64,000 nt of DNA from Amoebophrya sp. A120. Taxonomy: Eukaryota > Protista > Dinoflagellata. A program made the translations under genes and the position numbers. This document shows positions 3,675 through 39,671 of this stretch, one piece after another. The notes beneath the pieces were generated by a model. The model saw nothing but the letters and a program-made list of their open reading frames with translations, did no database searches and was not told where the DNA came from. Within the stretch, counting starts at the first letter, position 1; every line of letters begins with the position of its first letter. The DNA lies in assembly GCA_905178155.1 (NCBI GenBank), contig CAJINV010000004.1, positions 690,629 to 754,628 of the forward strand, read 5' to 3'.

Positions 3675-6307
3675 TCATAGTTTTGGCGTGAAGAACGCTT
3701 TGAATTCGTCCCAATCGACTTTCCCGTCGCCGTTTTTGTCTAGTCGGGCGATCATTTGTCGCACTTGTGACGCGTCGGGGCTGATATTTCCGAGCCCAAA
3801 CTCCGCGCCGCGGGTGAGGAGTTGCCCAATTTCGTCGATAGATAGTGACCCGCTGTGGTCCACGTCGATTTTCTGGAAGGCCTTCCAGAGCATCGCGTCC
3901 AGGTTGTTGTCAAAGAAGTTGAGGCAGCCTGCGACGAATTCTGTGTACTCCACGTAGCCGGAGTTATCGACGTCCAGGGACTCCGCGGCCCGTTTGCACA
4001 CGGCGGGGTCCACCCCCAGTTCCTGCAGCGCGCCGGCCAGTTCGTCCATGGAAAGCGTGCCGTTGTTGTCCACGTCGTATTTGCGGAAAATCGCGTTCAG
4101 CTTGGGGAGTTTGTTGGCGGAAAGCTGGGACGCGACCTGCATGCGGACCACCTTTTCGAGGTCGGACCGCTCGTGGTACTTCATAAGCTCGTCCATCGTG
4201 TTCTCGGACAAATGCACGTCCTTCATGCCTGGCGCGTCCCGGAACCACTGGAATTGCAGGCACTCGCTGCAGGTGGGTCGCTTGTTTTCGTCCACCGTAA
4301 GCATGGACGAGAGAAGCTGGCGGACCTGTTGTATATGTATAATAGGGGGTTGGAGTTCTTGTTGATACGAAAAAAAACTACGTACTTGTACTTGGTGTGT
4401 GTTTTTAGACAAGTTCTTGTAGATTCTTGACAAGGGCGGGGTCTACTAGCGAAGATCTTCCCAAATAGAAAGTGTAAGACTCAGAAACAATTATCGGCAT
4501 AAAAAAAGAAAATAAAGCAGATCACAAGTAGAACAAGTAGAAATACCGGCTGACTGGCGTGTTCTACTCTTTTCCAGTTTGGTGGCACGGTCAAGACTGC
4601 GAGCCAGTCCTTTTTCTTGCACGTTTTTGCGATGAAGGGCAACTTTCCAGAGAGAAGCTGGTACAATACCACTCCCAAGGACCACACGTCGCACTTCGGG
4701 CCGAAACTCTGGTTCCATACCTCTGGCGCCATGGTAACCGGGGTTCCCGCGATATTTTTTGATTTGCCAGTGACCTGTGATGTGGTTTTTGTAGATGCAG
4801 CGTTTTTGTATGACCACGACACATCTCATCTTAATAAGCTAAAACTGCTTTTATTTCACAAACGCCATTTTTCCTGATACTCAAAAATTTGCGGAAAGCA
4901 CTTACAAGTTTTTGTATCATCAAAGTATAATCCTTTTTTTCGCAAGACGAGATTGCGTGTCACAGTTAGTACCTTGTCAAACATTTCCGCTAGCCCAAGA
5001 TCAATGACGACCGCGTGTGGCTGTGTTGCTGAGTTCCCGTCGTCCAAAAGCATGATGTTTTCCGCCTTCAGGTCCTTGTGCATGATGCCCCGCGCGTGCA
5101 CGTATGAGATCGCGTTTAAGACCTGCGTATACACCACACTTATCCACTGCTCGTTGAGTCTGTACCCCGCCTTGTAGTTCGACTCGATGACGTCCAGCAA
5201 CTCGCCGCCCTTGGCGGTCTCCATCACGATGTAGATGTTGTTGTAGTCCTCGAAGTACTCAAAGAGGCGGATAATGTGCGGGTGGTCGAGAGACTTCAAA
5301 GTGTCAATCTCCAGCTGCAGCTCCTCCGGGGGCATGGCCGACTTCGCCTTGTTGACGACTTTGAGCACCTATGAACTGCAAATATGTCTGGGTCCTCTGG
5401 TAGATTGCGAGATCTGTCATGCTAGTCTGGCATGACTGTGAGCTCTGTATTGCGTGGCCGCGAAGAGCTCCTCTTGCCCATCATGCAGAAACGCAGGCTG
5501 TCATGCGGAGTACGCAACTCAGAACCACGGAAAAACTTATCATGCTGGGCAGCGCATTACAGTGCTTCCACTCTTCCCTTCCTTGCATCACAAGTTTCCA
5601 GGCCCAGACATTTTTGCAGTGCATAGCACCCGCTCCTGGTGGGAGGAAAGATCCTCCACGAGGTAGACGAGGCCGAAGGACCCCTCGCCCAGTTTTTTCA
5701 GCGTTTTGTAGAAGTCTTCCGGCTTCCCGGTTTTGTTCTTGTCAATGAAGAAATCTCGGCGAATCCCCGCCTTGATGTATTTGTCCCGCACGCGGCGCAG
5801 GATGGCCGCGTACAGGCAGAGGAACTCGGTGAATTCCAGGAATCCGTTTTTGTTCGTGTCGAACTTCTTCATCAACGCATCCAGGAGCCGGTCGTCGTTC
5901 AACGGGGGCAACCCAATCTCGCTGTTCAGCGCCTCGATGCATTTTCGTAGTTCCTCCTGGTTCAGCTGCCCGGGCTTGCCCACGTTGTACTTCTTGTACC
6001 AAACCTTCCCGGCCTTGGTGGTCTCGTCGTTGGTGGATAAGACCTTCTGGATCAGCTTCAGCTGCTCCTTGCTTGGTGCGTACTGCGCTTGGTTCCCCCC
6101 GCCCTCGGACTTCCGGGCGCCGATCTTGAAAGAAGTGGCCCCGCCACCCGCCCCACCCGCGTGCACGTCCCAGCACTGCTGGATGGTCATGTACTTTTTT
6201 CCGCTCGCCTTGTGCAGGTAAGAAACCTGCCCGGGTCGCGACGAAGAGGGGACCACGACAAAACCCGGAGGGAGCTTCGCAATGTCCGGATGGTTAGGGT
6301 CCGCCAT
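3675..6307 (-). CDS. Calcium-dependent protein kinase (CDPK) with extra N-terminal EF-hands and a WW/MBD-like N-terminus, about 650 aa, 4 exons
   Basis: Exons 6307-5630, 5368-4973, 4774-4547 and 4325-3675 join in frame through GT-AG introns. Kinase motifs: GEGSFG, VLK, HPHIIRL, HKDLKAEN, DLG, GTPVTMAPE, DVWSLG. Four C-terminal EF-hands (DVDNNGTLSMDE, DVDNSGYVEYTE, DVDHSGSLSIDE, DKNGDGKVDWDE) and an N-terminal DTNKNGFLEFTE. Confidence 0.93.
4326..4546 (-). other. Canonical GT-AG intron (CDPK intron 3)
   Basis: CCG|GTATTT...ACAACAG|GTC joins HASQP to VRQLL in frame. Confidence 0.85.
4775..4972 (-). other. Canonical GT-AG intron (CDPK intron 2)
   Basis: AAG|GTACTA...TCACAG|GTC joins MFDK to VTGKSKNIAGTP in frame. 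Confidence 0.85.
5370..5625. mobile_element. TIR introner, family A (256 bp), in CDPK
   Basis: TIRs TATGAACTGCAAATATGTCTGGGTCC / GGCCCAGACATTTTTGCAGTGCATA; TSD gcacc at 5365-5369 and 5626-5630. Intron 5369-5629 is GT-AG using TSD bases and restores QERVLKVV. Confidence 0.92.
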
Positions 6308-7842
6308 TTTCGATTAATAATATTCTTGGGCTAATTATTATATCCACGAAAATGTTTTTTTTTGTATATCAGGTGTTGATCGTGATTGAATATGAAATGT
6401 CGTGAAGAAAGCTGACAAAATACGAGGGGGCTACTCGTACTCTAGTCAAACTACTTCTGTGAAGATTCTTGTTGGGGTCGAAAAACAAAAAGTTGCGCCT
6501 TCACAGTTGATGTAATAGGTACGGTTTGTCAAGCGAAAAGAGTGATTTCAAACGGAATTAATATGGGTCGAAATAAAGTAATAAGCGATGGTCTAGTACA
6601 ACTACAACTTTCTCAGAAGCAGAGTTTTGACTTCGTATTCGCAATCGATTATCGTGGATAGCCTCCTCTTCACGATAAAGGTAAGTATAAGGCCTTTATT
6701 CGAGGAAACTGTTGCTCCTCGTGTCGCCGTCGCGTGTCGCTGTGTTGAATTGTGACGTCGAACCGATTCCGAGCCGTAAGTAATTCTAAATCTGTACGAA
6801 TTTTTTTGAAGCGAGGGACCACTACTCTACTGCAACTGATAGACGATTAGATAAATAAAGATCCTTCAGTCAGACCACTATGCATGGTGGTATTAATGAT
6901 CGTCTACTAGTGCGGCACATTGTGCTGATGATGGCCCTCCTAAAGGGACCACCAGGATGCAAGTCCTCGGGCAACATGTTTTACTATTGCAATGATCAAT
7001 CTAGGCGTGAAAGGATCTCTACTATAGAAAGCTATAATGAGTGGTCGCAAAAAATATCAAATGGAATAGTAGTTGTATTAGACAAGGAGCGTTGGGGGCC
7101 TGTGGTGATGATATTTTGTGGGACGAGGAGGTGAAGGAGAAGATGAAGAAACCGCCAGAGAGACACCTTTCCCGAGCAGAACCACCTGGCGCAGTTGTGA
7201 AGTTCCATCAAAGCGACCGACCATGATGTTGGGTTGTTCTGACACGAGACATGGCGACCGATCTACTTTTTCGATGAACGATATCCAATAGCAATAAATG
7301 GAGCACGTTTTGATTTTTCTTTTCGACGTTGCGTAGAACCACGTTACTGCGTCTTGTTGTTCTGCTTCTTGCACGATATTATCAATACCACGAGTATCTT
7401 CTCTAATAAATTGCTGCACGAACCGACTCTACAACTTCCACGAGTACCGAAAAGTTCTTGGTATCGTATCTGTAGTCATCAAGCACAGACCGCGAAGGAA
7501 CGAGCGTGGGCGGGCTAATGCTAACTTGCTATTTTTTGTAGCTCCTGCAGAAAATACACGTTGACGATAGTCCTCTGTGATGAGTTTGTTTGTAAATGCG
7601 TCAGTGCCTTCTCATCTCGAGCTCGAAGTAGTCCTAGTCGCACAACAAAGGTCGTAGTTGAGTGGGATGAAACTACAACAAATCCTATCGTGCCCCGTCA
7701 TCCTCATCTTCGGGAGAAATCATTCAATGCAATCTGGTGTGTCTTGGCAGGGGAAAAATTTGTATGTGCAGTTTTACGCTCTACTTCTACAACTTCCGTG
7801 GTGCTCCAGCTCGTGCACCTAAAATCTTTTTCGTAAAAATCT

Positions 7843-10800
7843 TCAATATGTTAAATATTGCGAAGAGCCTCCTCCTGCTTCTGTTTGAAAATCAGCGTCG
7901 TCTTGTAGTCCTGTTTGCAGCCCAACAACAACGTCCGCAAAGTCACTCTCGGAGAGCTGCTCATCATCGTCGCCATACACTTCTTCTTCACTCTCCGACG
8001 TCGATGCCCCTTCCGGCTTCTTGGATTTGGCTTTCTGGTTCTCCTGCGTGGCCTTTTTACTGCTTACACCGTGGCGCTTTTTTTGTTTCTTCTGTTCCCG
8101 CTCGCTCGGTAACGTTTTTGAGTTTTTCTTGTTCGCCCCCGAGACTACACTTGATTTAGAAGGTTTTTTCGGTGGAGTCGGATTGCTCGAGTCAACAACC
8201 TCCACGTCTTGGTCATCAACTCCAACGTCTTCTTGCAGAGAAGTTGACCTAGAGCTTCTTTTTTTTGTGCGCTCTTTGTCTTTGCCCGGCAGCGCACTAG
8301 TTGTACTTGTCTTCGGCGCTACAGTAGTGTCTTCTTTATTTTCACCGGTGGAACCAAAGGAAAAATTTGCTGCAAACGCGGCATTTTTGTCGGACGACGA
8401 CCTAGCTTCTTGCTGTCCTCGCGCACCCTGTATGTTTGTTCCTGGTCTTATCGTCCTCTCGTCAGCTCCTGCGCCTCTGCTCCTTGCACTCCTCCCGGGG
8501 AGGTGGACGACCCCCGACGGGTCTCCCTCGGACGACGACCGCGCGACAGCGATGAGGTAGGTCGCCAGCGCAGCCCCGGTACAGAGGCAGAACACCAAGG
8601 CGACAATTAAGAACGTCGTACATTTGCAGCAAGCCGCTTCGGCCTCCGGGGTGTCGGGCCAGGGGAGCGGTGCGATGTCCCGGAAGGCCGAGAGACTTGG
8701 TGGTGGATTGTATCGCGTCTCGGGGACTTGTTCGTGGAAAGCGTGTCCGCCAAGATCTTCAGGATCCAGGGTCGTGGTGGTAGTAGTCGTTGATGTGGTT
8801 GTACTAGTCGTCGTCGTCGTATCCCGAGAAAAAAGTGTTACAGTTACACGTTTGCGTTTGTCGCATTTTTCAGGTTCATCTTTGGCGATACAAATTTTCT
8901 TTGCAGGAGCATGACAGACACAGAGAAAATTAGGATTTGAGTTCAGAGATCATAAGCGAGGCCACGCATCGACAAACTAGGCTCGGGAGGAGCATATCCG
9001 ACATCATGACAGGAGTGCTCTGTCTCGCTCCGCCTACAACGCAGTGTGTAAAAAGTACTGTAGCGCTTTTTTCTTTGCATATGTCGTCGTGCACTGTTCT
9101 TCCTGTTGGTACGGGTTCCAGTGGTCATCGGCAGTTTTGTATCCAACCAAAAGAGATTGTAGGTGCAACTTTGATGTGATGCGCAACATGCGAATTGATT
9201 GCGTCCTCTCCTGTCATGCTGGTCCTCATGCATTGCAGGGCCCACAACTAAGCGCGTGTCGGTGTCCACGTACTATCTGCGCAACCACGTGACAGGTTTT
9301 TATTGCTGTCTTCAACATGCCAGACAGATCTCGAATGTTGTTCTGCAAAGAAGGGCTCACGACCTACAACGTTTTTTTCTTGGATATTTTGAAAAGTTGA
9401 AACAGATCGACGTGGCCAGGCAAATTTTCCCCGACTTCTTCTTCGTCCGCTTCCAACAGTTGAAGCCGCTCATCCGAGGAGAAGTCGGAGAAGCTTCCGG
9501 AAGGCACGAAGGGCAAAACGTTTCCGACGTCGATTTCTTCCGGCGGGGGCGGGGTGTACTGATCCATGCCGGCGAAGGTGAATTGAAATGTGTGCGCAGC
9601 TTTTACGGCTATCAAATGCAAAAATGTCTGGGTCTGGAAGAAGACCCTTGTTTGTCATGCATTCTTTGGATTATGCAAATGGTCTGTAATGCACGCAAAA
9701 GCATTACAGGTTTTGCGCAGGCCTTCTGATGCCTATCCTGCATGAGAAATTCCCAATTTGCGTAGCACGAAATGGGCAGCTTTTGGCGATCATGCAACAC
9801 AAATTTTTGCCCATTCCAGAATCCGCATCACAAGTTCCAACCTTCCAGACCCAGACATATTTGCAATCCATAACGGCCCGTAGGGTTGCCGTGTAATCCA
9901 GCAACGGATCGCGCCCGTTTTGGATGTTGACCGCAATGTCCGTCTCTTGGGGTGCCCCATTGTCAGTATCTTCCGAAAAGTAGACCACCTTGACTGTGTA
10001 CACGCCAGCCTGGGGCTGGGGGGTGTCGTCCCGGGCCCACCGAATGTTTTCCACGGGACTGAGGCTACAACTGGAACGAACATTCATGTCCACGTCAAGC
10101 TTGCCCCCGAAATCGCCTTCCATATGCATTGCAAATATGTCTGAATCTGGATGAGTGCGGAAGCTTGTGGTCATTCTGATTTCGGATCATGCCCCGCGAG
10201 GGCCGCTGGAACAATACAGGGACAGGGTACATCACAGGTTTTAATTATAAATATATATTTTCATATAAGGCGGGCTAAGTAGTAGCCCGCCTTATGGTTA
10301 AGTTAACCATAAGGCGGGCCTTATGTGATATGTACTCGCAAAGCGAGTTAAAAAAATATAAATGAATCGCATAGCGGCTTAACGTTAACCAGGTTAACGT
10401 TAAGCCGCTTTGCGATTCATAATATCCCGCATGACCAGCAGGGCCACCGTTTTCGCAGTGCCAAAAGTGGGCATCTTTGCTACCTGCGCAAAACGAGTTT
10501 TTTTGTTTTCATCTGCGGGACGCATCACATCAAATTGCATCCTTCCAGAAGACCCACCAGACAGGCATAGTACTTGCAATGCATATTCCTTGTTGGCCCA
10601 ATACACTTCCTCTTCACTTGGCGTGATGACATGGAGATCGATGTCATTGCAGTTGCTCCAGGAAAGTGTAACCCGGATGGCATTGTTATCGACTTGCCCG
10701 CCCGCATCTTGTATCCAGTGCAGAAGTATCGTACTGATTGCAATCATGCACTCCAAGTTTAGGTTCTAAATCAGCATATCATAACAAATTCTTCTATTCG

Positions 10801-13800
10801 TATTCGATTCCACCTGCTTCTGAAAAGCCAAAAACTTCTTGGGTTGTTGTAATTTCTATCAATGCAATACTTCTGCAATGCATATCTTCCACCAGCTGCA
10901 ACACGGGGTCAATGGGCACTACTTCGTCGCGGAAGGGCTTGAAGCCGGGCACGTACCGCTCGCTCTGCTGGGCTTGTATCATTTGTAAAAACGTCCCCAC
11001 CCCATAGCTGTCATGCAAATCTGCATGCTCAAATGCTTTCTCATGCGGAGCCCCATGACAGGCATTCTCTAGGCGATTTTTGGATTTTGTAGCACTCCAA
11101 TCAGCATAATAGGGTAGATCTGTGATGCTGCTGAACAAGCTGAACCGGATTACACTACGAGTCCAAACTTGTCATGCGCAACACCCAAAGCTGACAGATT
11201 TGTCTAGCAGATTCGCCATCTTGACTATGGGGTGGGGAGATTTTTCCTCACAATAGCTTGCGCGGCGTAGTCGTAGTATTCCTGCGCGTACAGGTACGCG
11301 CGCAAATCCACGGAACGGTCACTCTTGCACCGCGCCTCTTTGTTCTCGTAGGCGGGACAGGCGAAGACGGGCGGAAACTCCGCCGCCAGAGCATCTCGCC
11401 GGGCTGCCACCTCGGCCTTGAGAAACGGGAGGCACCGGAGCTTGGACTCGAAGGAGTCCTTCAGAACGAGGGCCGCGTCCACGCAGACGACCGCGTAGTG
11501 CTTGAGTTCCCGGTATGCAATACAAATTTCGCGTACATGCACAAGATGCATCACAAATTTCACCAATTTGGAGTGTGCTGACACTTGTCATGCTAAACTA
11601 GAATCGGAGTCAAGTTTTGTCATGCAGGGGCACCAGCATTTGTACTACGTCTACGTGTACGGGAAATTTACTGTGGATACCCGGAAGGCTTCTTCCTCGG
11701 CGGCATACGGGCCGGTAGAAAAGATTTTCGTGCACGCGGAGAACCGCTGCCGTCCGGTAAAAGGGTCAAAGAACCGGACCCAGGTCGTCACGTTCGTCGC
11801 AGCCTCCCGCTCGACTTCGACCCGCTTCCGCGTCTCTGCTCGCGCGTACCGCGAGATCGTGTCTGCCATGTCGTCTTCCCAAGAAGTAGTTGTAGCAGAA
11901 CCTCCCGTTGTTCCGTCACCACCACCCTGGTTCTTGTAGTCAAGCAGAACGGGATAGCTCGAGCCGTGGTTGCTTGACAACGTGGTGAAGTCGTTCCACC
12001 GCGTGATCGAGGCGTCTGGGGAAATATCGAACAAAAAAGCATTAGCGTTAGCGTTTTCAAATTTTTTCAAACAAGCGAAATTTTTTTCGATTTTGCATGT
12101 TAAGTTAGCAAGTTCACGCTCAGACGAACATCTGTCAGCTAAGTGTGTATCCTTCTCCTCCCGTGCAACAGGAAGCCGGCGCCCCTTCGTATCCTCCAGC
12201 ATTTTGTTGCAGATCCTCTCCGCCGTTGGTCCGTACTTCAGTGCCCAAGCGTTGATGGTGTTATCCACCCGCCATCGGGCTGCCACCATCGTCGCCGGGC
12301 TTTTGCCTGATTTGACCAGGTTCGGGGCAGATTGTAATGCGGGTTTGCATTTCTTTTGGGTGTCTACTGGCGTTTCGTGGCCGAGCCATCAAAAATCTAC
12401 AGATTTGATGGCCAGCTGATGCAAATTTGAGTGGTCAACAGAAAAAACGCTAATGGTGAAATTTTTTTTCCAGCTATAGGTCGCGTCAAAGTCTGTCATT
12501 AGCGTTTTTTACAGGCACCCAAAAAAACGCTAATGCCAAAAATTTTTTTTTAGCGTTAGGTCGTGCCAAACTCCGCCATTAGCGTTTTTTTCCGAACCGC
12601 ACAAAAGCCGCACTTTTTTTGGGCGCCCGGAATAAACGCTAATGCCAGACTTTGGCACGAGCTAATGCTGCAAAAAAAAATTTAGCATTAGCGTTTTTTC
12701 GGGTACCAGGAAAAAACGCTAATGCCAAACTTTGGCACGACCTGTAGCTGGAAAAAAAAGTTTGGTGTTAGCGTTTTTTTTGTGGACCATTCAAATTCGC
12801 CTCTGCTCGGGGGGTCAAAATGACCTCCGAGGACAGAAACGCTAATGCCAGACTTTGGGAAGCTTGATCATCTTGCTCGGGCTCAAGAGCCGCGAGCCAA
12901 AAACGGGTCTCCAGGCACTCCAGGAGCGACGGCTTGTCAGCCCGCCGCATGGTCAGGAGGTCGCGTAGCCGGGAGTCCCTGGAGCCCCAGACATGCGCGC
13001 GGCCAAGCTGTCGCCCAGATCTTTGGCGGTATCATCTCCGATCCGCTCCGCGGCCGAAGAGACTGCTTCCACTGCTTCCAGTTAGCGCGAATCTGTCTGA
13101 ACGGAACACAGCTACCTCACTAGCTAGAATGAAAAAAAATTTGGCTTTCGCCAGCAAATGTCAAAACGCTAACGCTAATGCTTTTTTGTTAGATAGGAAA
13201 CGACGTAGGCCGACAGGGTGATGCTCCACCCGACCGGGAACAGGGCTTGCAAGTCCGTCTCCCAGTCTACGTCGTCAAACCGCAAAGAGTTCGCGTCCGC
13301 GTCCGTGACTAGGAGAACCATAGCGTGGCAAAAGTCCCGGTCCTCGAGGCAGGGCTGCGCCACGGTATCACAGGCAAAACTGTTTTTAAAGAACGGCTTT
13401 ATTCACGCATTTTTGCAGTCATGCATGGCAATGCAAATATATCGTGCATGCTATGCAATACAAATAAAAGTATTTTGGGCACCTTTTCTCTTTATGCATC
13501 AGCATTGATTCATTACTGCATGGCAAATTACGATCTTTGTCTTTCCTTTGATACGCGGTGGTCGGAAAGCCGTCGGGAAAGGACGGTCCCCCGGTCCCGG
13601 CCGCAATCGTGAGCCCGAGAAACGCGGCGGGGGGCAGCGTGTACCACAAATCTACGGACTCAAAGTCGTCTCGCGCGCCCAGCCAGTCGAGCCCCGCCTG
13701 TTTGTTCTCCTCCGTGGCAACCACGAAGTGCACCGAGAACACGTCCCCCCAACTTTCCCTTTCCACGCCGGTGTAGAGAAACAAAGAAAACCGGTCGTGT

Positions 13801-16040
13801 TGGGTGAGCGAGCTGATCGCTTTCTGCACCGCGGTTTTCACCGCGGGCCATTTGCCGCTTTCTAACATCGATCCGCTGCAGTCGATAGCGAAGACCACGT
13901 TCTTGGTGACCCGGTGTTCCAGGCCCTTTTCGTACCACGGTGCTTGTCGCGCGTCGTAGTTTTCCAGCGACGATGTGGCTTTTGGGGCTGGGAGAGGACG
14001 GCGCTCCTGGAGGTCGTGGCTCGAAGTAGCGGAGGTGCTTATTTGCGGCAAAGTTGCATTCGAAACTGCACTTGCTGCGCTAGAAATACCACTAGTGTTC
14101 ATCGCGGGTGCTGATGCATCAGCTAGTAACGAGCTTGGTGGAGGAGGAGGACCACTCGCGGCTGCTGCAAATAAAGCCGCTGCTGGGCGGTTCCTGGAGG
14201 TCTGAACTTCGGTGAAAGACGACGCCACAGTGTGCTGCTCTTCTTCCGCCTCCTCCAGATTCATGTCCACATTCGGCCACTCAACCACTCTCCCAGTGGT
14301 AGCGAACCCGAAGTTGGCGTAAGCGACGTAGGTTGTTGGTCCAGTGTACACTTCTTGTTCGGAGGTCTCATCCCCACCATCTTGCAGCTCATGATCTGGT
14401 GGTCCGAAGTGCTTTACGAAGATTTTTCCGACCTGCGCGGCGACGCAGTCGTCAAAGTTTTTTTCGTCTTGCAAATCGTCCTGCACGCTGCTCACTCCCG
14501 GAAAAATAACCATGGGATCGCGAGTCGTGATCAAGCCGTCCGATGTGATCCGCGCCCCCGTGCTGCTGTAGCGGGGTGATGTCGATTCGTCCCCCTGATC
14601 GTCCACCTGCCAGCGGGCGGGTAGGACGGCAAAGTAGCTTTCTTCCAGCCCGGACCGGTCAAAAAACCCGTCCCCGTCAGACGCCGCGGCGAGGTGGAAA
14701 TTGCCGAGAACAGATACGCCGGATTTTTGCGTTTGTCCTGCAAGAGCAAGATCAGCACTGTCACCAGTGTGGTCACTGCGGAGATCAGGAGTGTTGTCCC
14801 AGTCCCAACCTCCGTAGTTTCCATAATTGTCCCAGTCACCCGTGAGCGGAACGCAAGCAGTTCTTGGACTAGAAGTGCCGACGCTAGAAGCTGCACCAGT
14901 TGCAGCTCCATCGGCATTCGCGTCGCTACATACGCCGAATTTCTCAGCCATGAATCCACTCGGAGAAGTTGTTCGCAGCAGCTCTGCCTTCTGCGCCAGC
15001 GAGGCGGAGGAGTTGGCGTCTCTTTGCACTTTACGACACCCCGTAGCTCTTTCGCTGGTAGTTGACAAGAGCACGGTGTCTTCAATTTCTTTTTTTAATT
15101 GCAAGACCTTTTCCTCCACACGCGTGAGCTGGTCCTGGGTGAAGGTCCGGTGCTGGTCGGTGGTCAGGTTTCTTCTCGCGTAGTACGTGTGGGGAAGGGT
15201 CGTGGTCGTGGTGGAAGTAGTACTGGAATTAGTAGTAGAGTCAGATGAATTGCTTCTACTAGAAGACGAGGAAGCTTGCTGCATAGAGGATTCAGCAGGA
15301 GAAGCAGGTCCTGTTCCTGCTATTAGCTGCATTGACTCGTTTATTGTTGCGTTTGAGGATGTCAATTGCACCACAGTCGAGTAGTTGGTAGCACTAGCAG
15401 TTAAAGCGTTCTTGGTCGCTGTCGTGTCAACATCCTCTTCGGGTTCTCGTACTAGCAGCTGCTGCTGCGAAAGAATCTCCGAATTATGCGCTTGAAGAAG
15501 CCGATCCTGCTGTTCTCGTCTCTGCTGGTGGTCATCTTCAGCAGGGCTGCCCACGACGAGGTGTTTTCCATTTCGATTTCGTTTTCTGCCCTGTTCCTGC
15601 AACATGACTTTATTCGCCCTCTCCCGAAGAAATGAGGACGAAGATGATGATGACGTAGGAGAATCATCTTCCGCAACGTCAAGAAACCCAGGGGCGGTGT
15701 CCACATCTTTTCCGACCACCCCACTCGTGCTCCTGCTTTTCGTCGTGGAGGTGCTCCTTTTAGCAGCTGCTGATCTGGCTTTATTACGTTCATCTTGTGC
15801 AAGAACTGGTGCGCCGGCGGTTTTGTCCTTCTTCAAGCGAAGAGGGTGATGCTGCTGCGCCGCGTTCTTGTATACAGTGTAGCCCGCACAGGTGGGAGGC
15901 GCCACTGAGTGGAATACATAAGAAATGAAAATCAAACAAGAAGCTGGTCGTGTAAATGAAAGATGTCTGCAGGAGCTAGTAGCTCGATATGAACAACCCG
16001 GCTGGGGTCGCCTCGGGCTGTAAAGGAAAAACAAAAACAT
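7843..16040 (-). CDS. Multi-exon type-I membrane protein: vWA domain, DUF2135/YfaP-like domain, Thr-rich stalk, TM helix, charged tail
   Basis: vWA MIDAS motif VVFAIDCSGSM and a later VLLVTD motif. DUF2135-like IRVTLSWSNCNDIDLHVITP..GGKLDVDMN..VENIRW. Poly-Thr at about 8770-8820 and TM helix FLIVALVFCLCTGAALATYLIAV. Exons are joined by removing about 9 elements; the two 3'-most junctions are less certain. Confidence 0.72.
8908..9239 (-). other. Probable non-canonical intron or degenerate introner
   Basis: 7-bp direct repeat ttgcagg at 8901 and 9233, with GCATGACAG/CTGTCATGC inverted motifs. Removal gives in-frame VVGPAKKICIA; boundaries are uncertain. Confidence 0.45.
9273..9409. mobile_element. 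Probable degenerate introner
   Basis: Flanks acgta/acgtg and a short imperfect inverted repeat CTATCTG..CAAC / GTTG..CAGATCG. Removal joins PGHV to DTDTR in frame. Confidence 0.5.
9610..9872. mobile_element. TIR introner, family A (263 bp)
   Basis: TATCAAATGCAAAAATGTCTGGGTCTGGAAG / CTTCCAGACCCAGACATATTTGCAATCCATA; TSD acggc; restores TLRAV-KAAHTF. No GT-AG register exists. Confidence 0.92.
10123..10585. mobile_element. Family A-like introner (463 bp) with an internal hairpin cluster
   Basis: Ends TATGCATTGCAA / TTGCAATGCATA; flanks ttcca/ttcct; restores YWANKE-GDFGGKLDVD. Confidence 0.85.
10362..10420. repeat. Near-perfect palindrome with 29-bp arms and a 1-nt loop
   Basis: ATGAATCGCATAGCGGCTTAACGTTAACC-A-GGTTAACGTTAAGCCGCTTTGCGATTCAT, one mismatch. 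Confidence 0.95.
10712..10884. mobile_element. TIR introner (173 bp)
   Basis: TATCCAGTGCAGAAGTAT / ATACTTCTGCAATGCATA; flanks tcttg/tcttc; restores LVED-AGGQVDNN. Confidence 0.87.
10977..11255. mobile_element. TIR introner, family B (279 bp)
   Basis: TATCATTTGTAAAAACGTCCCCACCCCATAG / CTATGGGGTGGGGAGATTTTTCCTCACAATA; TSD gcttg; restores AAQA-QQSER. Confidence 0.9.
11514..11679. mobile_element. TIR introner (166 bp)
   Basis: TATGCAATACAAATTTCGCGTACA / TGTACGGGAAATTTACTGTGGATA; TSD cccgg; restores EAFR-ELKHY. Confidence 0.9.
12025..13195. mobile_element. Large foldback-like introner (1171 bp)
   Basis: About 33-bp TIR TATCGAACAAAAAAGCATTAGCGTTAGCGTTTT and its reverse complement; perfect TSD ggaaa; internal alternating AAAACGCTAATG / CATTAGCGTTTT array; restores SAYVVS-PDASITRW. 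Confidence 0.92.
13366..13553. mobile_element. TIR introner (188 bp) inside the vWA domain
   Basis: TATCACAGGCAAAAC / GTCTTTCCTTTGATA; flanks cacgg/cgcgg; restores FPTT(V/A)AQPC. Confidence 0.82.
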
Positions 16041-16936: not shown

Positions 16937-19900
16937 TTACTTGTCTTCTGGTGATTTGTTCTTTGAAGAGTGCTTTGATGTCGCTTTGGATTTCATTGGC
17001 ACTTTCTTATTCGTCTCAGCAGTTGCTTCACAACTTTTGTCCGCAACATCAACGGGAGCAGCGACTTGAGCTTTTTCTTTTTTTGCTTTTTTTGTCGCGT
17101 CACTTTTGGAAGATGAAGCTGGGTCTGCTCCTCCGCGTGAAACCGCTGGCCCACCGTTAGAATTGTTGCGAGCGTTTCTCTTCTTTCCCGTTTGAGCAAC
17201 TACTTCTTGAAGTGCAGCGGAAGCACTTGACGAACTAGCTGCACTGGAAGACGCCGGGACATCATCATTATTTGCAGTAGTTGTTGAAGACGCTTTCTTC
17301 ATTGCTCTCCTGCCAGCGGGCGAAGCACCACGTGCAGTTGGTGCTACCGTATTTCCTTCTGCTTCAGTGTTCATCTTTCTCGAAGTATCTTCACGCTCCA
17401 CCGCTTTAGAAGACGAAAGTGTTGAGCTACCGTCCAGAAGATCTTGAAGATTTTTATCCGCGGATGAAGCAGCTCCTGCTCCGGTGTCCCCGCCTGTGGC
17501 CTTGTTCGCCTTTGCCTTTGGTTTTGCTTTTGGTGACTGCTTAATACCCGTTGCAGGAGTTGTTGCTCTTCGACGACCCGCTTTGGCGTTTTGCGCAGCA
17601 GGCACCACAAGATCATTTGTTCCGCTGCGAGCCGGCTCTTTCGCTGTCGCTTTTTTACCTGCCTCGTCATCTTGCAGGAGCTTGACAGACTTCATAGACT
17701 TGTTCCTTTTTGGAGTGGATGGTTGCGCTGGGGGTGGAGGCATTTTTCTTCCAGAATCTACCTCATGGACCGGAGCCCCCACTGGAGGCGCAGCTTTTGC
17801 TGTAGCACCACGGGTACTGCGACTACGGCTTCTTGCTCCCGCCGACATTATTTTTATTGGTGGCACAGCCGGTTGTGAAGCTTTCGCCTTCGCAGCTTTC
17901 GGCGACGCTGGAACAGAATTTGACTTGGCGCTCGTCTGTTCTTTCCCTTGCAGTTTCATCACCCCACCAGCTGGACTTTTCGGAGATGGTGCGAGAATAG
18001 AAACGCCTGATGAAGATTCTGGCCCATCAGCGGCTAGTACTACTACTGAGGCCCTCCCAGCCTCAGGCTTAGCGGCCTTAGGTGCCTTGGCCTTTGCTTT
18101 TGGCGTACTTGGTGTTTTCCCTTTTTTCAGGTTCTCATTTTCATCTTCGTCGCCGGCGGGGGCTTGCTGTGATCTACTGGATGAGTTCACAACTACCACC
18201 GGAGGAGGGGGGGCCTTTTTGTCTACCTCTACTCCGTCATGCCGATCCAGCAATTCTTGTTTCTCTTTTTTGCGGCGCTTCTTCTTTGAGTCGGCTAATC
18301 CTAATAGTAATACTTCTGCAGGCTCTATTACTCCTTCGTCTACTCCGCGTCCAGATGTTTGTGCCAATGTTGCCGGTTTTGCAGTATTATGTTGTTGAGA
18401 CTTCGCCTCACTGTAGTTGCTTTCGGCGTCCGATACGAACGCTGACCCTTTTCGGCTCCGTTTCATGGGCGTCGCAGACGGAGCTTTTTTACACGAGACG
18501 GAGAAGCGCTTGCTGCTGTTCGGGCGCTTTTCATCTTCGGCGTTTTGCGGTCCTCCTGAATGTGCGATATCGTCTGCCGGTAGCGGAGGTTTATTTGAAG
18601 AACATGGCGCGGCGGGCGTTGATCTTGATGGTACGACGTCCTGCGGTCCTTCTTGTTCAATTTTGGCTTTCTTATTCCGGCGCTTCATGGATGTTGATAT
18701 CGTAGACGCGCTGGATTTGATATCCTCTTGCGCGTCTTGATCTCGCACAACTTGACGATTGCGGTTCCCTATTTCTTTCTTTTTTCCATTGTCGAAGAGG
18801 TCTCCCTCCGCTACAGGTGTAGATCGTGTAGACGTGTTTCTTCTGGTGCGCTTCTTGTTCATCTTCTTGCCGTCAAGGTCAACGCCGGCTGTAGAACTTG
18901 CTGCTTCTTCTGCTTCTGAAAATGAAATTTGTAACTGTGGTGCTACTTCTTCCCCTTCCGGTGCAAGGGCGCCAGCTTTTTGACCTTGCTCGTCTTCGCC
19001 GTCCGACTTCGTCGATTGCTTTTGCGCTTTTGCTTTCTTTACCTGCTGTGTGGCCTTGCCCTTTTTCATACTGGTAGCATAAGAACTTTCATTTTTATGA
19101 GGATCTTCATTTTCGTTTTGAAGAGCCTGAGCTGACGCACGAGCTGCAGCAGCGACGCCGTGACCGTCAGCCAGTTGGTCCGGCTCAACTTCAATATTCG
19201 CCGGCGCGGCCAGGGCCACCTCGTCCTTCTTTTTACCTGCTTGTCCTGGTTCCGCATTCGAGTCCGACATCACCTCCACAACAGAACTCTTCCTACCTCG
19301 CTTCATCGGAGTTTTTCCGGCGGGAGCGTTTTTCATCGGCGTGATGATCATCGTCTTCGTCTTCTTCACTGGGGGAGCTTTTTTGCAGGACACCGAGTAG
19401 CGGCGACCGCCCTTGTCGTTTTGTGAACTACAACTGGACAACTCCTCTCCTGCGCCTCTTTCGGCGTGGTCGGTCTCCGCCAGAAGTTCTTGTTGTGTAG
19501 TTCCTGGTAGTTCGTGTTCTGTCCCTTCATGTTTACTCTTTTCCACCGGGACCTCCTCTTCCCAAACAACCTTGCGCTTATTCTGCTGGCCGCGATCTCC
19601 CCCAGCTGCAACGGAAGTTTGATTGGAAGTAGTCAGGGCCGCTCCTGAACGAAGTAGGTCGCTGCTAGTTCTTTTCAAAGAAGCCGCGGGAGCGTTTTGT
19701 TCTGCTTCTGCACCAATGAGGCTATGACGGAGTCGGAATGTAGGCTCCACCTGCCGTTCGTCGTGGAGCAGCACGGCGGCGGCGGTTGTGGCTTTGGAAC
19801 TCTTGGAAATAGACATCGAGGACGCGGCCGGAACCCTTTCCCTTCCAGTTCCACCTGCCGCATCATCTCCTGCAAGAGCTACATCATGATAAATCGGCAG

Positions 19901-22900
19901 GGAGTATCTCCGACAAAATCCCCACAGACTGGCGCCCCACAGCTTCGCGTCCCTTTCGACGATTCGCAGCCAGATTGCTGGGAATTCGGGTATATCGAGC
20001 CAGGTTTCGGAGAAACAGCTTTCCACCAGACGGAGTAGTTGGTGTTGTGGTCCGCTCGACGGAGTAGAGAAAAACGCTGTCGATGCTGCAGTTGGAGATT
20101 CTCTTGCTTCGTCAAATGTTGAAGACTTGGAAGAGGTTTTTAGGCTACAACTTTTGCTCCGAACTACAAACGGCTGCAGCAGATTCATCAATCGCGTTTT
20201 CGCCGGTGGAGGTCGTATATTTGCAGCTCCTAGTGCACGAGATAGCTGCCTCTCCCCGTCATCGTGAGCGCCACGACCCGGCAAGAAGCTCCTGTTGACA
20301 GCGCTGCGGCCGTCGCTCGTATTCTTCTTCTCCAGCACAGGCCTCCTGCGGGGGCCGACTGCCGCCAGGAGGAGGATTTTCGCGAAGACGACGAGGTGTT
20401 GACCCGAGACTGGTGTACTAGGTGTTGAAGACGATGCTGGGGAAATAGATGCTGCCACTGCAGCTTTTGATTTTGGTGTCCTTGATCCGCTGTCTACCGC
20501 CCAATACAGGCTTTCCAACCGATCACGGTAGATCCCGACGAAGGCCGGGTTTGGACGGCAGGAGGAACTACCCTTGAAGTTCTCCACAGCACAGGCAAAA
20601 TTTGCACGACCCGTGGCTGAGCCCGCTGCACACGTCAGTCTCGTGCCTTCATCTTGTTCGCCCCGTTGGCTGTTCATGTTCTGTGTCGGGGGAGGGAATG
20701 CGATATCATGTTCGTCTTTGTTTTTCCCGTTCAAAAATTCTAGTTCTCCGTCTACAACTTCCAGCGACCCCTTCGGTGCAGCGCCAACTACGCTTTTTCT
20801 CGACGAGAGGCTTTTTCGCCGGGCACCGGGTCCGCCCACAGATAGCCGGCTGTTGCGGCTTTGCGGGTGCACCACGATCGGAGGAGCTGCAGGCTCTACC
20901 TGCGCGACGTCGACTGCTACAGATTGTGGGTTCACTTCTGTGTTCCAAGTTCTTCTTATGTCCAGTTTGTTCTGATTTCCAGATAGCATGAGAAGTTTCA
21001 TTTTCCGCTGCTGCTGCTCAATTTCATAGGCGAACGGTTTGAAAATGAGCGACGCGTCGAGACCGCTGCCACGGGGGGGAGCTGGTACAACTGCTGCAGG
21101 AATTCCATCACGGGACGCGGCTGGAGGTAATATACCACGATCACCTGCCGAACCACCAGAGACAGCACACTGCGTCATCGATAGGGGCACCATGATGTTG
21201 CAAAAAAACCAATCGGGCACCAGCTCCTTGCACAGAATCGCCCCGGTGTCCTTCCTCGTCAGCAGCTCCAGTACCCAGAGCCATGCGCTCGTGGTAGACT
21301 GGACTTGGAGGCACTTCAACAGCGCGGCGAAAAGCCAGGCCAGTTCGGTTTTCTCAAAGTCCTTTCTGGTCTCGTTGGGGGATTTTCGGGTCGTCGTGGA
21401 ACAAACAGAGGTCCTCCGAGGGGCAGGTTTATGTTCTTTTTGGCTGTAGATGCCGTTTGCGGCCTCTTCTCTTTCGTCGCCCTCTAGGTTGTCAACATCT
21501 CCAGGTTTTTTCCAAAACCTCCGTTGTCGCGGCTTCTTGTCTTTACCGCGCTCGGATTTCCGGCGCTTGCGCGGCGGGCCGTCTTGATAAAGCGTATCCG
21601 CGTCATCTCCGAGGCGACTTGCGGTGCCAAAGGTGCTGTCGGACAGGTAGCCGGTCACGTCGGTTTGATTTCCATCGTGGTCCTCGATTTCATCTTCCTC
21701 GTCTGACACAGAGAGGCCGATGATTTTACTATTTGATGAGCGAACGTTTTTGTTTTTCTGCTGCCGCCTCATTTTTCCGTTCAGAATTTCTCGTGCCGGA
21801 TCTCGAAGTTCAATTTCCGTGCCGTCTTTCCGCGAAAGAAGAAATCGTCCCACAAGCGGACTAAACTTCTCTTGCACCTTTTGGTTCCACAAGGTGACGT
21901 CGCGAATTCTGTTAGCACGACCTGAGCCTGCTTTTATGATCATTTCCTTCTTGTTCATTTCCTCCCGCGCTTTCGGCTTCGGGGCGATCTTCTTGCGCGT
22001 CGTTTTCTTTGTGTTGTCGTCCGCCAACAGATCGTCCTCTTCGTCTTCAATGTCGTCGTCAATATTGTCGCTGGCAGCAGCGAGAGATTCTCCATTTTTG
22101 TCACCATCGTGTTCGTCTCCATCTTCTCGAAACAGCGCATCCAGTTCGTCGTCTTGCTCTTCTTCAGGCAGGGCCGTCGCTTGGCCTCTTCCTTGTGCTT
22201 TCTTCCTGCTCTCCAAATCTTCCCGCACCTCGTCCAGCCGATCCTGGTGGTCGCAGTTCAAGACGCACCGGAAGAACAGCGGACTTGCCTCGCAGTCATC
22301 CAAGACTGGAGAACTAGCAACAGTCGCAGTCCCAGCTGCGGGGATATTGCTTCTTGCATTTTCATCACCCGCAGCACCGTGAACAACGTCGTTCCTCTTC
22401 TTTGGGCCCTCCGTTGTTGTGGTCTTATGCCACTCGAGGACTGAAGAATGTTTCCGACCTCCACCACTGTCATTGCAATTATACGACGCATTAACCCATT
22501 TACACACCAGTTTCAAGTAGCCGTCGAGCGTCTGCCCGCGGTTGCGTTTCCCGACCATCGTCTTTTCCTTCAGCCCGGTCTTCACGTATTCGATCAGCAG
22601 GGGTTCGCCGTCGCAATTCTGGAGGATGGAAATCCCCGTCTGCAGCATGGGCTGGAAGGAGAGAAGTCCGTGGGACCGTTTACAGTACTCGAACTTCAAC
22701 TCATCCCCAAACGTGGACGTCAGTCCGTGCATCGCCGACGCCTCCGTGCTGAAGCTGCTGTGGCTGTAGTTTGCGTTGGTCGTCAACGCGAATTTTGCGG
22801 CGGAATCGGATTCGAGGAAGAGAAGATTGGTGCGCGGTAACTCGAACGAACTCACGGCGGGTGGGGGAACTCCTGATGCACAGGAGTGTGAAGTAGAACT

Positions 22901-25900
22901 GCTGGCTGCTCCAGTGCTTTTCATCATGGCACCCGCATCATTTTCATCGTCTACAACTTCGTGGCCGTTTCTATTTCGCTTGTTTTTGGCCTTGTTTTGT
23001 TTCAGTTTTTCTTGTGCTTGTCCAGTCCCTTGTGGTCCTGCTGCTCTCGTGTCTGCGTAGTTGCCCGCCGCAGCATTATTCAGATTCTTCCCGTGCTGGT
23101 CCTGTTCCCCTTCCCGGACTCCGACGAAGGGCATCCAATGGGTCAGGAGTTTGTACACCGCCAGCCGGGAACACAAAGTTGCCTTCTGGCGGTCGCACAG
23201 GATCGCTTTCAGTTGGTCGTGCTTTTCCTGGAGGTCCCGGAAAATTCTCGCCCGAATTTCGTCCAGTTGCTCTTGGTCCAGCTCGACGTTTTGGAGGTCA
23301 TCCTCATCGTCCGCGGCGTCGCTGTCCGTCGCATCAGAAATTATACCATCATCTTCGGAGCTGCCGTCTGCGAACGAGGCATCTTCATCTCCTGCGGGCG
23401 ACGCCTTGTCTTCCTGCTCATCCGAACGAAGCACCTTTCCTTTATCCGAATCATGATCCGATGAAGATGCTTCCTCAAAGCGCCGCCGCTTATTCTTTAA
23501 CATTTCGGCCTTGGAGGTCATCTTCTTCTGGTTCTTGCTTCCCGGGAGGAGCGCCTTCTTTTGCTCGAGGGAGCAGCCCCCGCCCGCACGAGACGAGGAA
23601 GTCGGCTTCAAGTGGGAAGTAGATCTGGATGAATTAGTATTCTTTGCGGCTGCAGCCATCTCAGCCTGCTCTTTCTCAGCCCTTATTTTCCGCAAAAATT
23701 TCTCCTGCGTCTTCCGTTCCAACCTTTCCCGCTTTTCCGCCTTTCTTCTCTCCCGGTAGAATTTCGCCTCCTTCCTCCGCACGCTTGCCGTAAACGCGTC
23801 CAGCTTTTCCATTTCGTTTTTGTAGTACAGCTCCGGCATTTTCACCCGAAGCAAAAAGTCCCAAGCGAGAAAATCCCCTTCCAAGCGCGCGGACCGCTTC
23901 TTTTTCGATAAATCACTGTAGGCGAGCAGCGTTTCTTCCAAATACTGCTTCATTTCCTCGTACTTTTCCAGCCGCAACATCACCTCCAGCAACCGGCAAT
24001 TCAGGTACCGCCAGAGCTGGGGCTTGCGGAGTCGTTGCACCGAGAAGGTCGACGTAGAATTTTGCTTGTTAAACGTGATCCGCGCGTCCGCCGGGCGGAA
24101 ATTCTGGATCAAAATCCGGTAGAACTCCTCACAGATCGACAGTTTCTCGTTCTTGATGTGGCGGAAATTGTCTACTTCTTTATTTACCAGGGGCCGCGTC
24201 GATGTTTTTGGAATAAGATGCTGCGAAGTTGTGGAATGATCGTTTATTATGTCCTCGCTTGATGTAGTTCTCTGTCTCTTTTTTCCTGGTGCACTGCCAG
24301 CAGCAAGCGCCCGCGCTCGCGTTTGCGTCCGCGTTCCGCTTCCCCCTTTTTCATTTCGTCCCGCGACCTCCTCCTCCAACACGACCTCCGGTATGCAGAG
24401 CACCCGGCACCAGAGTCGGACCAAATCTGCGCAGCCGGAGAAGTGCAGGACCGTGTTTTCCTGCGCCCAGCGGTCGTAGAGGTGGTTCAGCTTTTCGTTT
24501 TTCTTCGGCCCCAGCTTGACTTTCTCCTGGAGCCGGAGCGCGGCCTGGAGGCGCGCGAGCGGGGGGCGGTGGTGATCGCGATGGTCTTGTGCACAAGTTC
24601 GATTTTCCACAACATCGCCGTCGAGCCTCTCGTCGTGCGTGAAGAGCGGCGCCGGGACAAAACCAAAAGAAATCGCATCCATGTCCAGTTTCAACTTGTT
24701 ACCGTTCTTTATTCCAGTTGGCTTATTTGTTCTACCACTCTGATGCTGTTGACTCTCAGCTCCACCATTTCTTGTCGGGAAGTGTGGAGGCAGCATGGTC
24801 GTCAAGATTCGGTGCACCGTCGATTCACCATTCGTTCCGGCTCCTGCAAGTAGCTGCCCTTTTTTCGAAACGAGCTCCCTGGCCTCCATCCATTCTTCGA
24901 AGAAGAATGGAAAGCGAAAGCTTTTGGCTCTAGTTCCCCCAGATGTTGAGAGTACATCAAGATCGGAGTAGTTCTGCTTCTGGACCAAATCTGCGTAGGA
25001 TTCGAGGGATTGTAGCGGAGAAAGAGGTCGTGCTGTCGTCGTGGGCCGGCGCGTGGTATCACGACCATCAGCTCCATTTCCTTTTTCTTCAACGGCCGTA
25101 AAAGAACGTTCCGGAGGACGGGCTGCTCCGGGTGAAAAATCTACTAGATCTTCTTCCATCAACAGCCGCAACAGTCGCCCCTCCCAGTCCGCCCCCTCGC
25201 AGTCCAAGACTTGGCAAAATTCCGAGCTGTACTCACTGAAAAAAGCCTCCAGCGGCATGGCGATTTCCTGCAGCTCCTGGTCCGCGTAGTCGATTTTGTT
25301 GGTCTGCTTCAAATCCTGAAACGGGTGCTGCTGCGCCGGCAGGTGCGTCAAATTCGGACGCTGCGTCAATAGGGCCGCGAACAGCTTCTCGTGGAAGTTC
25401 GTGAAGGTCGTTGTAATCGAAGGAGGATGAACATCTTCGCCACGTCGGGAATCTGGACGCGAACTGGATGAAGGAGCCGAAGTTCTTGTACCATGATTTT
25501 CTGTGCTGGCAGTATAACAATTCAGCGACTCGTGGAGCAAGGACACGAGCTCCGAGCGGTCGAGCTTCGCCTGGAAGCCCTGGGTGACAAGAAACTGACA
25601 CGGGTGGACGGCGGCGACAAACTTTTTCTCACGAAGATGCGCAGCAGTTTCCGTTTCGTCGTCTCCATCTTGTTCGGAATAATTAGCTTGGCGTCGTTTG
25701 GCTGGCGTTCCACTTTTCCCCCCGCCGGGAAGATGCTGAAAATTGTCCTGCTCGTTCTCCTTGTCCAACAAGCTCAACATTTCGGCATCCGAGTCCTCAA
25801 TCGCGCCAGCACGACTTCCTGGTTTGTCGTTGTTCCTCTTCCCATCTTCGCTTTCAACATTATTTCCAACAACGCTCCGCCGTCGCGAATGCCCTCCTCC

Positions 25901-37500: not shown

Positions 37501-39671
37501 TCCTTTATCTGCTCTAGTGCAATAAAATACTCAGCGAAGGAGCTCCCACCTAAACCTATCGCTCGATCTCGATAATACATCTTCTCCCGTGTCCTCTTCA
37601 GCTTCTCAATCTCAACCGACGTGTACTAATTTCTAGAAGAACTGGTGCGGACCTCTTCCACGAAACAACATGCTGCTAGTAAGCAGGTCTAGTACATCAA
37701 CGTAACGCATCAACAAGAGTCGAAAACAAAAACTTAAACTGTATAGTACCTCCGGATGATGACGACGACAGCACTGTTCCACTATGATTTGCTGGAACAA
37801 GGTTTTGATGGCTCGCTTGCTCCTTCAATGCAGCCTCCACCTGGACTCGTTCCTCCGGAGTCAGCAAACTGTCCCGCTTCAGCATCAGCTTACAAACGGC
37901 GCGCCCATTACCGCCGAGACCCGAGAACGAGACCCGGACGAAGCCAAAACGAGGCCAGGCCTGTCGCTTTTTGGCATTCGCGCGGGCGCCGACAACGTCG
38001 CGGCCGGGGGCTGTGTAGCTCTACTCCATGCCGCCGGCGCGTGGTCCCTGCAACTGCCTCAGAATGACGAGCGCGCCCCGCGGAGTCTAAATTATTTTCT
38101 TCATATTGATGCCCATACTGGGGCATGGGCCACGGGGCTATCGATTCGCGGGCAGCATGCCACGCGGCCCAAATTTTGAGCCGCATCGGATTGCGACCAG
38201 AAAGATAGTACCCGCGCTAGTCAATGACCACGCCAGAGCTCGTCTACCGGGTGCCCCCACCTAGACGCCGCTCGCTGTCCAAAATAAGAAAGTCCTCGCG
38301 CCTGCTGCGGAAGTTGGGCCCATGCCCCTGCTGCAGATAATGGCCCAGAACGGTCCGAAAGGGCGCAGGCCAAAACGAAGCCAAAACCAGGCCAAAACGA
38401 AGCCAAAGCCGTCCGAAAAAAATGCGGCCAAGCCTTGCAACTTTTTGCCGGAAAGATGAGGCCCAGAATTAGGCCGCGGGGCCTCGTTTTGGCCTCGTCT
38501 GGGCCTCGTTTTGGTGTCGCTTCCACGGCGGCACGGCAGCGCGAGCCGGGCGACGACAAAAATCCAAAACTTATCGCGTTCCCCTTCCAGACACGAAACG
38601 CGGTTGCCTGGCCTCGTTTTGGCCTCGTTTTGGCCTCGTTCTGGCTTCGTTTTGGCCTCGGCTTTTTTGCCCTTTGGCTTCGTTTTGGCCTCGTTTTGGC
38701 TTCGGTTTTCCGGCGATGCCGGCAAGGGGTGGACGCGTGCAAATATCTACTGGGCCAAAGTGCGGCCGTAACGATTTGAATATAGCAGGCACTGCGCGGG
38801 GCGCTGGGGCTTCGCATAGTAGCCACAGGCAGGCAAGACGAAAGCGGCGCCCCCTGGGCATGTGGGAAGCGCAAAGCGCTGCGACGCCGACAGCCAGGGC
38901 CTTTTGCGTTTGCTGTAGTGCCATGCGGCTCAAAAATTGAGCCCGGCGGCACGCTGCGTCGCCGGCGGGCTTCTCCCTATGCTTAAGGCGATGCGCCCGA
39001 GCCCACAGAGCGAACAACGCAAATGGCGCCCCCGCTTACTTGCAGCAGAAACGCCAGAGGCTGGGGGCCCTGTAAACGTCTCGGCCGACCACTATGGGAA
39101 AACTTGCCGGCGTTTTGCGTTGCCAGAGGTGGGCCCTTGTAAAAGCTGCCCGATTGGCTTCGTTTTGGCTTCGTCCTGGTCTCGTTATCGTGCGAGGACG
39201 GTAACGGGGGTCGCCGTTTGTAATCAGCTCCCGGTTGAGGTTCGTGTTGCGGTGCAGCTGCACGATGTCCTGGGCTACCTGCTTGGTGACGAACAAGTGG
39301 TCTTTGGAATCTTCCTCGTGCGAGTGAGGTAGTAGAGAGGCATCATCTTCTACTTCTGGGTCCCCGTCCTTGATGACCAGGTTTTTGTGATGGTCTTGAC
39401 TCGTCGAGCCGGGGGCATGATTTCCTCCTTCCTCCTCCTGCGACAAAGACAAGGAGGCTCCGCGCGGCAATGCCTGCTGTGCTCCGGAATCAGCAGGTGG
39501 AGAGGCCAGCCGGCCAGCCACGAGCTCCTGTGATGCTGGTGGTGGAACAGCAGCAGTGGGTGGTTGCTCGTCATCGTGTGCTCCAGGTCCAGCTCCAGGT
39601 AGTTGGCCTGCATGATTTTCTGGGGAGCTGCCGTCGTGGATCCCCGGATTCGTGAAGGTGGTGGGGAACAT
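34556..39671 (-). CDS. Leucine-rich-repeat protein resembling DNAAF1/LRRC50; exon structure only partly resolved
   Basis: LRRs LETLFLDNCGL, LQQLYLMKNEL, LVVLDISDNRI, LKQLNASRNLL and LTILDVSDN; LRRcap-like HYRETVALQLDSLIVLDD; N-terminal LTKQLVEKIL..EFNTELVL. The link between the upstream exons (39671-39224 and 37889 to about 37750) and the 37066 ORF, and the 3' end, are uncertain. Confidence 0.6.
37890..39223. mobile_element. Large foldback-like introner (1334 bp)
   Basis: About 65-bp imperfect TIR starting TTACAAACGGCG..AACGAGACC(C/A)GGACGAAGCCAAAACGA; TSD tcagc; internal 11-bp GCCAAAACGA(A/G) arrays in both orientations; restores NREL-MLKRDS. Confidence 0.92.

Follow-up and report, generated by a model that had tools for sequence, protein, structure and literature searches.

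Background

The closest described relatives of the locus analyzed here are the introners of Amoebophrya sp. A120. Farhat et al. 2021 (PMC7789003) describe them as having an inverted repeat (IR) of TAT, 7 nt and AAA and a direct repeat of 3-5 nt. Their analysis covered introns of 40-1,000 nt, with a mean of 240 nt for the non-canonical introns of A120. In the part of that report that was available, U1 is given as undetected in A120 and no transposase is reported. Gozashti et al. 2025 (PMC12130899), also available in part, list 58 A120 families, including TIR families of 0.8-1.6 kb, one with simple repeats and several that are palindromic. The family fam38 is annotated there as 'Ginger; 5-bp TSD, TA/TA Termini' (supplementary file 8). 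According to the available portion of PMC10045372, IS3EU/GingerRoot elements have TA..TA termini and a TSD that is usually 6 bp, and Ginger2 has a TSD of 4-5 bp.

The window is a 64,000-nt stretch of A120 DNA (contig CAJINV010000004.1, positions 690,629 to 754,628). It contains a non-autonomous TIR element of 1,171 nt with TAT..ATA termini at 12025..13195. The element is a large member of the published A120 introner class, and both the class and the position of the intron in the public gene model were already known. It resembles the introners of Farhat et al. in its TAT IR, 3-5-nt repeat, non-canonical boundaries, lack of a transposase, exon-joining hairpin and organism label. Like them it is repeated in the genome, as indicated by foreign flanks and by diverged copies in runs X1 and X2. 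However, it is longer, beyond the 40-1,000-nt range, and its TIRs span 33-100 nt compared to 8-20 nt. Neither a central array of the TIR motif nor arms of equal length are described for the introners in the available part of that report, and the open-access introner literature that could be consulted in part contains no description of a mirrored internal array.

The most similar families of Gozashti et al. were fam38, fam103, fam135 and fam86, which were compared by description only. The element shares TA/TA termini and a 5-bp TSD with fam38, but fam38 is ~808 bp and has ORFs resembling Copia/Gypsy proteins, whereas the element has no coding similarity. The A120 families of ~1.18 kb are listed with 16-bp TIRs, in contrast to the 33-nt core found here. 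Since the family rows available carry no sequences, the element family may already be among them. TA..TA termini are also shared with IS3EU/GingerRoot, but the repeat is 5 nt instead of the usual 6 bp. This holds for all 11 window elements with TAT..ATA or TTA..TAA ends, 11/16 or more TIR matches and a repeat of 4 nt or longer: in each of them the repeat is exactly 5 nt. The element was therefore not filed under IS3EU/GingerRoot, whose TSDs are usually 6 bp. Its 5 nt agree with the 4-5 bp of Ginger2, but it has no transposase by which to place it. What is new here is the position of a palindrome, 389 nt from one end and 388 nt from the other, together with an unrelated element of 1.33 kb in the same window that has a similar plan.

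Boundaries of the element and the host gene

The element starts with TATC and ends with GATA. Its first 33 nt (12025-12057) match the reverse complement of its last 33 nt (13163-13195) at 32 of 33 positions, and the likeness continues imperfectly beyond these cores, at 72% out to 101 nt (left TIR 12025..12125, with two tandem motif copies; right TIR 13095..13195). The TIRs begin with TAT-CGAACAA-AAAA and TAT-CTAACAA-AAAA, which corresponds to the TAT, 7 nt and at least three A of the A120 introners, and as in those introners there is no internal transposase gene. A perfect 5-nt TSD, GGAAA on the plus strand (TTTCC on the sense strand), flanks the element at 12020..12024 and 13196..13200, within the 3-5 nt of introner direct repeats. 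The preliminary description had proposed that the TSD lacks a G on the sense strand and makes a canonical splice site impossible, and this is the case. None of the six possible intron cuts (TA..CC, CT..TC, CC..TT, TC..TT, TT..AT and TT..TA) has GT/GC-AG or AT-AC ends, so the intron is not a canonical U2 or U12 intron.

The host gene lies on the minus strand (7846..16040) and encodes a 1,646-aa protein with a weak vWA match. The element separates exon 2 (13196..13360, upstream on the sense strand) from exon 3 (11680..12019, downstream). For exon 3 a single homolog was found, the host protein itself, to which it is 100% identical ('unnamed protein product [Amoebophrya sp. A120]', P0001). This public protein maps to 10 exons between 16040 and 7846 and already joins the two exons across the element. 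All 9 introns of the gene start with TAT and end with ATA beside a short direct repeat, some of which are imperfect. Eight of them are ~170-470 nt, and the intron formed by the element is 1,176 nt. Removal of the element and one TSD copy restores an open minus-strand frame, and retention results in a stop a few codons into the element. The host protein also has a predicted-looking hydrophobic stretch near its C-terminus.

The intron as removed (12020..13195, minus strand) consists of the element and one TSD copy, and the position of the cut is ambiguous by 5 nt (12025-13200 at the other extreme). Runs X3 and X4 are contigs of one sample whose RNA status is a guess and which carry no strand or splicing-efficiency information. 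Contig 12 of run X3 (5,313 nt) contains 11256-11508, 11680-12019, 13196-13360 and 13554-14100 at contiguous record coordinates with 0 differences. Since the four exon pieces are contiguous, this contig lacks the element as well as the neighboring introns 11509-11679 and 13361-13553. A contig of run X4 has the joint 12019-13196, a skip of exactly 1,176 nt at which 5 letters fit either side. Removal at non-canonical boundaries, as in the A120 introners, is therefore seen in contigs of both runs, with their RNA status guessed. The earlier reading of a TIR element acting as a non-canonical intron is borne out by these contigs and by the public protein. That reading would have been called into question by a single-copy element and flanking exons not joined in mRNA; instead the exons are joined in the RNA-guess contigs and the public protein, and the element is multicopy. 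It is very likely that the element plus one TSD copy is spliced precisely as a non-canonical intron.

In the predicted fold of the whole element, 32 of the 33 TIR pairs have a pairing probability of at least 0.88. The 33-nt TIR stem may bring the exon ends together, as it would in the other eight introns of the host gene. The cut would fall within the 5-nt repeat and is somewhat more probably than not the work of a divergent A120 spliceosome, in which U1 is undetected. Alternatively, the intron could be removed by a non-spliceosomal endonuclease-ligase that recognizes the terminal stem. The lack of a spliceosomal dinucleotide at any cut, the near-certain terminal stem in the predicted fold and the undetected U1 (PMC7789003) are all consistent with such an enzyme. 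However, the available part of the same report gives 83 of 89 spliceosomal proteins and U2, U4, U5 and U6 for A120, and finds the same IR and direct-repeat layout in 15% of canonical A120 introns, so an endonuclease-ligase is a tentative possibility. In splicing, the internal array probably has only a passenger role, since short introns without an array are spliced from the same transcript.

The central palindrome

The center of the element is a 394-nt palindrome (12414..12807), a predicted transposase-binding array with a geometry of 193 + 8 + 193 nt and 80% complementarity. It contains four 80-nt units (12441-12520, 12521-12600, 12621-12700 and 12701-12780), two in each orientation, which are identical to one another at 60-66 of 80 positions. 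Each unit is an inverted pair of the TIR motif AAACGCTAATG, 52 nt apart. This motif occurs nine times internally, at 12445+, 12497-, 12525+, 12577-, 12634+, 12686-, 12714+, 12766- (2 mismatches) and 12837+, and also twice in each TIR. The orientation alternates strictly between plus and minus, with spacings of 52, 28, 52, 57, 52, 28, 52 and 71. Eight of the nine copies fall in the 80-nt units, and the ninth is at 12837..12858 (plus strand). The motif is not found outside of the element in the 64-kb window at up to 1 mismatch. A 17-nt form of it has 11 matches in the 64 kb, every one within the element, compared to 0.23 expected, and this number was reached by 0 of 100 shuffles.

The preliminary description had counted about nine alternating copies between ~12440 and 12850, which agrees with this array, but the chain of hairpins that it predicted does not hold. 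On the sense strand, the palindrome RNA is predicted to form a single rod of -221 kcal/mol. Local hairpins only reach -117 kcal/mol, which makes the rod ~105 kcal/mol more stable, and 60 shuffles gave -100 +/- 5 kcal/mol. On these energies the hairpin chain was discarded as the most stable fold, although it could appear transiently while the RNA is being transcribed. A search of Rfam gave 6 generic hairpin matches, all far under the gathering score.

The same motif is present at the outer end (TIR) and deeper inside (array) of each arm, which is an IR/DR-type layout. The Sleeping Beauty IR/DR ends (PMC7827188, available in part) likewise have a motif at the outer end and deeper in each long arm, with arms that are not identical. 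The comparison with these ends and with Galileo-type long-TIR foldback elements (PMC3688188, available in part) is an analogy of layout only. Sleeping Beauty is a Tc1/mariner element with a TA target and Galileo belongs to the P-superfamily, whereas the inner site here is a 160-nt array of inverted pairs ~390 nt inward, with predicted binding. Unlike a classical foldback element, in which the arms are alike along their whole length, the arms here are alike over the outer 101 nt and the inner 193 nt, and the middle 288 nt are at shuffle level.

A second large element in the window (37890-39223; 1,334 nt, TTA..TAA, 5-nt repeat) is similar in plan and unrelated in sequence (no significant similarity, best E 0.19). 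Its TIR is 69 nt long, an inner inverted repeat of 35 nt lies at offsets 262/266, and the center contains inverted arrays of the element's own 11-nt TIR motif, which also starts with AAAACG; the arrays are less symmetric. Its removal leaves open minus-strand frames. An alternative reading of its ends is TAC..GTA with a 7-nt repeat.

Relatives of the first element differ in their modules. A sister family in runs X1 and X2 joins the TIR region at 12065 to 12412 with 23 nt between, and the left spacer is absent; a long left spacer is therefore not universal. In this family a related TIR leads almost directly to the start of the palindrome, after which the sequence diverges. Three contigs diverge left of 12768. 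One X2 contig joins 12347 to 12800 on opposite strands and would represent a copy in which the inner left arm resembles the right arm, which suggests arm-to-arm conversion or a more symmetric ancestor.

These relatives bear on whether the palindrome belongs to the element. It may be a separate foldback insertion, or a template-switch duplication made during gap repair, inside of a simpler TIR element, in which case the spacers are filler and the equal arms a coincidence. In favor of this are the lack of any relation between the two spacers, the exchange of modules among relatives (the missing left spacer, the three contigs divergent left of 12768 and the opposite-strand joint 12347-12800) and the many A120 families given as palindromic in the available part of PMC12130899. 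However, the array is made of the element's own TIR motif, and offsets of 389 and 388 nt have a chance of ~3/777 under uniform placement, an estimate made after the data were seen. A degenerate motif copy in the left spacer (near 12366-12376) also roughly mirrors the ninth copy, and the unrelated element at 37890-39223 shows a similar plan. A separate origin of the palindrome is considered unlikely.

The spacers and their coding content

Two unique spacers separate the palindrome from the TIRs. The left spacer (12126..12413, 288 nt) is missing from the sister family, and the right spacer (12808..13094, 287 nt) is common to diverged copies. There is no evidence for coding in either one. The likeness between left and right is not detectable, since 248 of 500 shuffles score equally high, and a mirror homology between the spacers was rejected as the alignment score is at shuffle level. 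Their folding is not unusual (z of -1.3 each).

The preliminary description had called these segments ORF-like and suggested that they may carry captured sequence. Open frames do exist, and a minus-strand frame at 12026-12388 is open for 121 codons, but coding content is not supported. A codon-position model trained on long window ORFs gave maxima of -2.3 for the left spacer and +0.3 for the right spacer, compared to +3.5 to +7.1 for three true exons. No Pfam family passes for the spacer frames, and a search of longer proteins gave no homologs of the spacer ORFs (0 of 55 candidates and 0 of 669). An Atlas search with both spacer ORFs returned nothing usable. The sole phmmer match among 1.84 billion proteins (P0002) is a protein of tandem repeats whose local score does not exceed 26.9 bits, and it was rejected as an artefact. 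Transposase domains were found in 0 of 51 window ORFs and 12 local frames, and these included no autonomous partner of the element. Among the variants listed between copies, the best of six frames in the right spacer has 10 of 23 synonymous variants and no new stop, and the best frame in the left spacer has 3 of 6; the synonymous bias among these variants is not significant in either spacer.

Record 12 of run X4, a 505-nt contig of guessed RNA status, contains 59 nt of the left spacer (12243-12301) with 11 differences. Three of its variants also occur in the other copies seen in DNA. The contig may derive from the transcript of a relative or a donor gene. This contig, the 121-codon frame and the 10 of 23 synonymous variants without a new stop would all fit spacers that are captured pieces of host exons or remnants of a transposase gene (a Pack-type element). 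However, the 10 of 23 is itself the best of six frames among the variants listed, the model scores remain below those of true exons, and the homology searches gave no Pfam family, no homolog among longer proteins and nothing beyond the tandem-repeat match. Capture gains no support from these protein-level searches, and a Pack-type origin is improbable.

Copies of the element

The summed contig depth in run X1 was 105-451 over the element and 36-43 over the flanking exons, and in run X2 it was 47-445 compared to 19-27 (two bins wholly in the flanks); these depths are not copy numbers. Run X2 has foreign flanks in at least 1 contig at the left end and at least 3 at the right end, and its versions of the right spacer have 2/192, 9/138 and 36/259 differences. 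With its foreign flanks, diverged copies and sister family, the element family is therefore small, multicopy and modular. Near-identical internal pieces of the element also occur at a depth of 2-4 in runs X8 and X9, which are small-share metagenomes and indicate presence only.

Contigs of run X1 cross both element-exon junctions with 0 differences, and the left junction is also crossed without differences, at a depth of 2.9, in a run from an estuary metagenome (X10). Therefore, the insertion is not an assembly artefact. An empty DNA allele, or a product of DNA excision, could also account for the joined form. This idea gains from the guessed RNA status of X3 and X4 but is very improbable, since the X3 contig also lacks two other introns exactly, the joint 12019-13196 has a depth of 0 in the DNA-like run X2 and both junctions are present in X1.

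A scan with the TIR pattern also gave 12 viral loci, which are one identical unrelated sequence, and 14 metagenome loci with no partner TIR or TSD and no blastn match at E<=0.01. Both sets were treated as chance.

Other features of the window

The window also has an introner family of ~250-260 nt with TAT..ATA ends and a common TIR of ~30 nt. Its members at 5370-5625, 9610-9872, 30421-30672 and 42748-43005 each have a 5-nt TSD, and there is probably a further one at ~48810-49065. The minus-strand region 3678-6313 contains protein kinase and EF-hand exons, like a calcium-dependent protein kinase gene, with a 256-nt introner within. A 3,142-codon open frame at 16940-26365 (minus strand) matched no Pfam family at E<=0.001. 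The minus strand carries nearly all of the long frames in the window.

Proposed origin and mechanism

The element is quite probably a gene-less, multicopy TIR element inserted into a coding exon. It is likely a non-autonomous DNA transposon composed of two back-to-back ends of ~585 nt, with paired ends that are predicted to mark the splice junctions, and together with one TSD copy it is missing from likely-mRNA contigs. In each end, the outer TIR would be followed ~390 nt inward by an array of the same 17-nt motif. By analogy, this layout may be compared to IR/DR ends, and the arm motifs are fairly likely to be binding sites for a transposase supplied in trans. The TA..TA termini and 5-nt TSD could point to an integrase-like DDE enzyme (IS3EU/GingerRoot/Ginger-like), an assignment held with about even confidence. 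On the simplest reading of the two large elements, an autonomous transposon would have lost its coding core, and its two ends, each with outer and inner binding sites, would then have become joined. The suggestion in the preliminary description of a deletion derivative of an autonomous element is plausible. The equal length of the arms could be partly due to chance, since the spacers have no detectable similarity, and the sister family without a left spacer argues against a strict spacing rule.

Significance

Two questions about the A120 introners are which enzyme mobilizes them and how introns that are not GT-AG are cut, and the element is useful for both. Longer copies can be searched for specifically with its long arms and 17-nt motif, which can also serve as bait in binding assays. 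Since there is no G at any possible cut and the interior is structured over 1.2 kb, the element lends itself to clean lariat and stem-mutation tests. The removal pathway of A120 takes out a kilobase-scale, highly structured insert precisely.

A more general and doubtful proposal is that the A120 introners of 1-1.6 kb keep the full cis-architecture of an undescribed superfamily with TA..TA termini and a 5-bp TSD. Its arms would be equal in length and unrelated in sequence, and each would carry a TIR on the outside and an array of paired, predicted binding sites on the inside. If true, selection in these introners would act on the length of the arms and not on their sequence, and the arrays would serve as bait for the transposase, undetected in A120, that is behind the tens of thousands of non-canonical introns of its genome.
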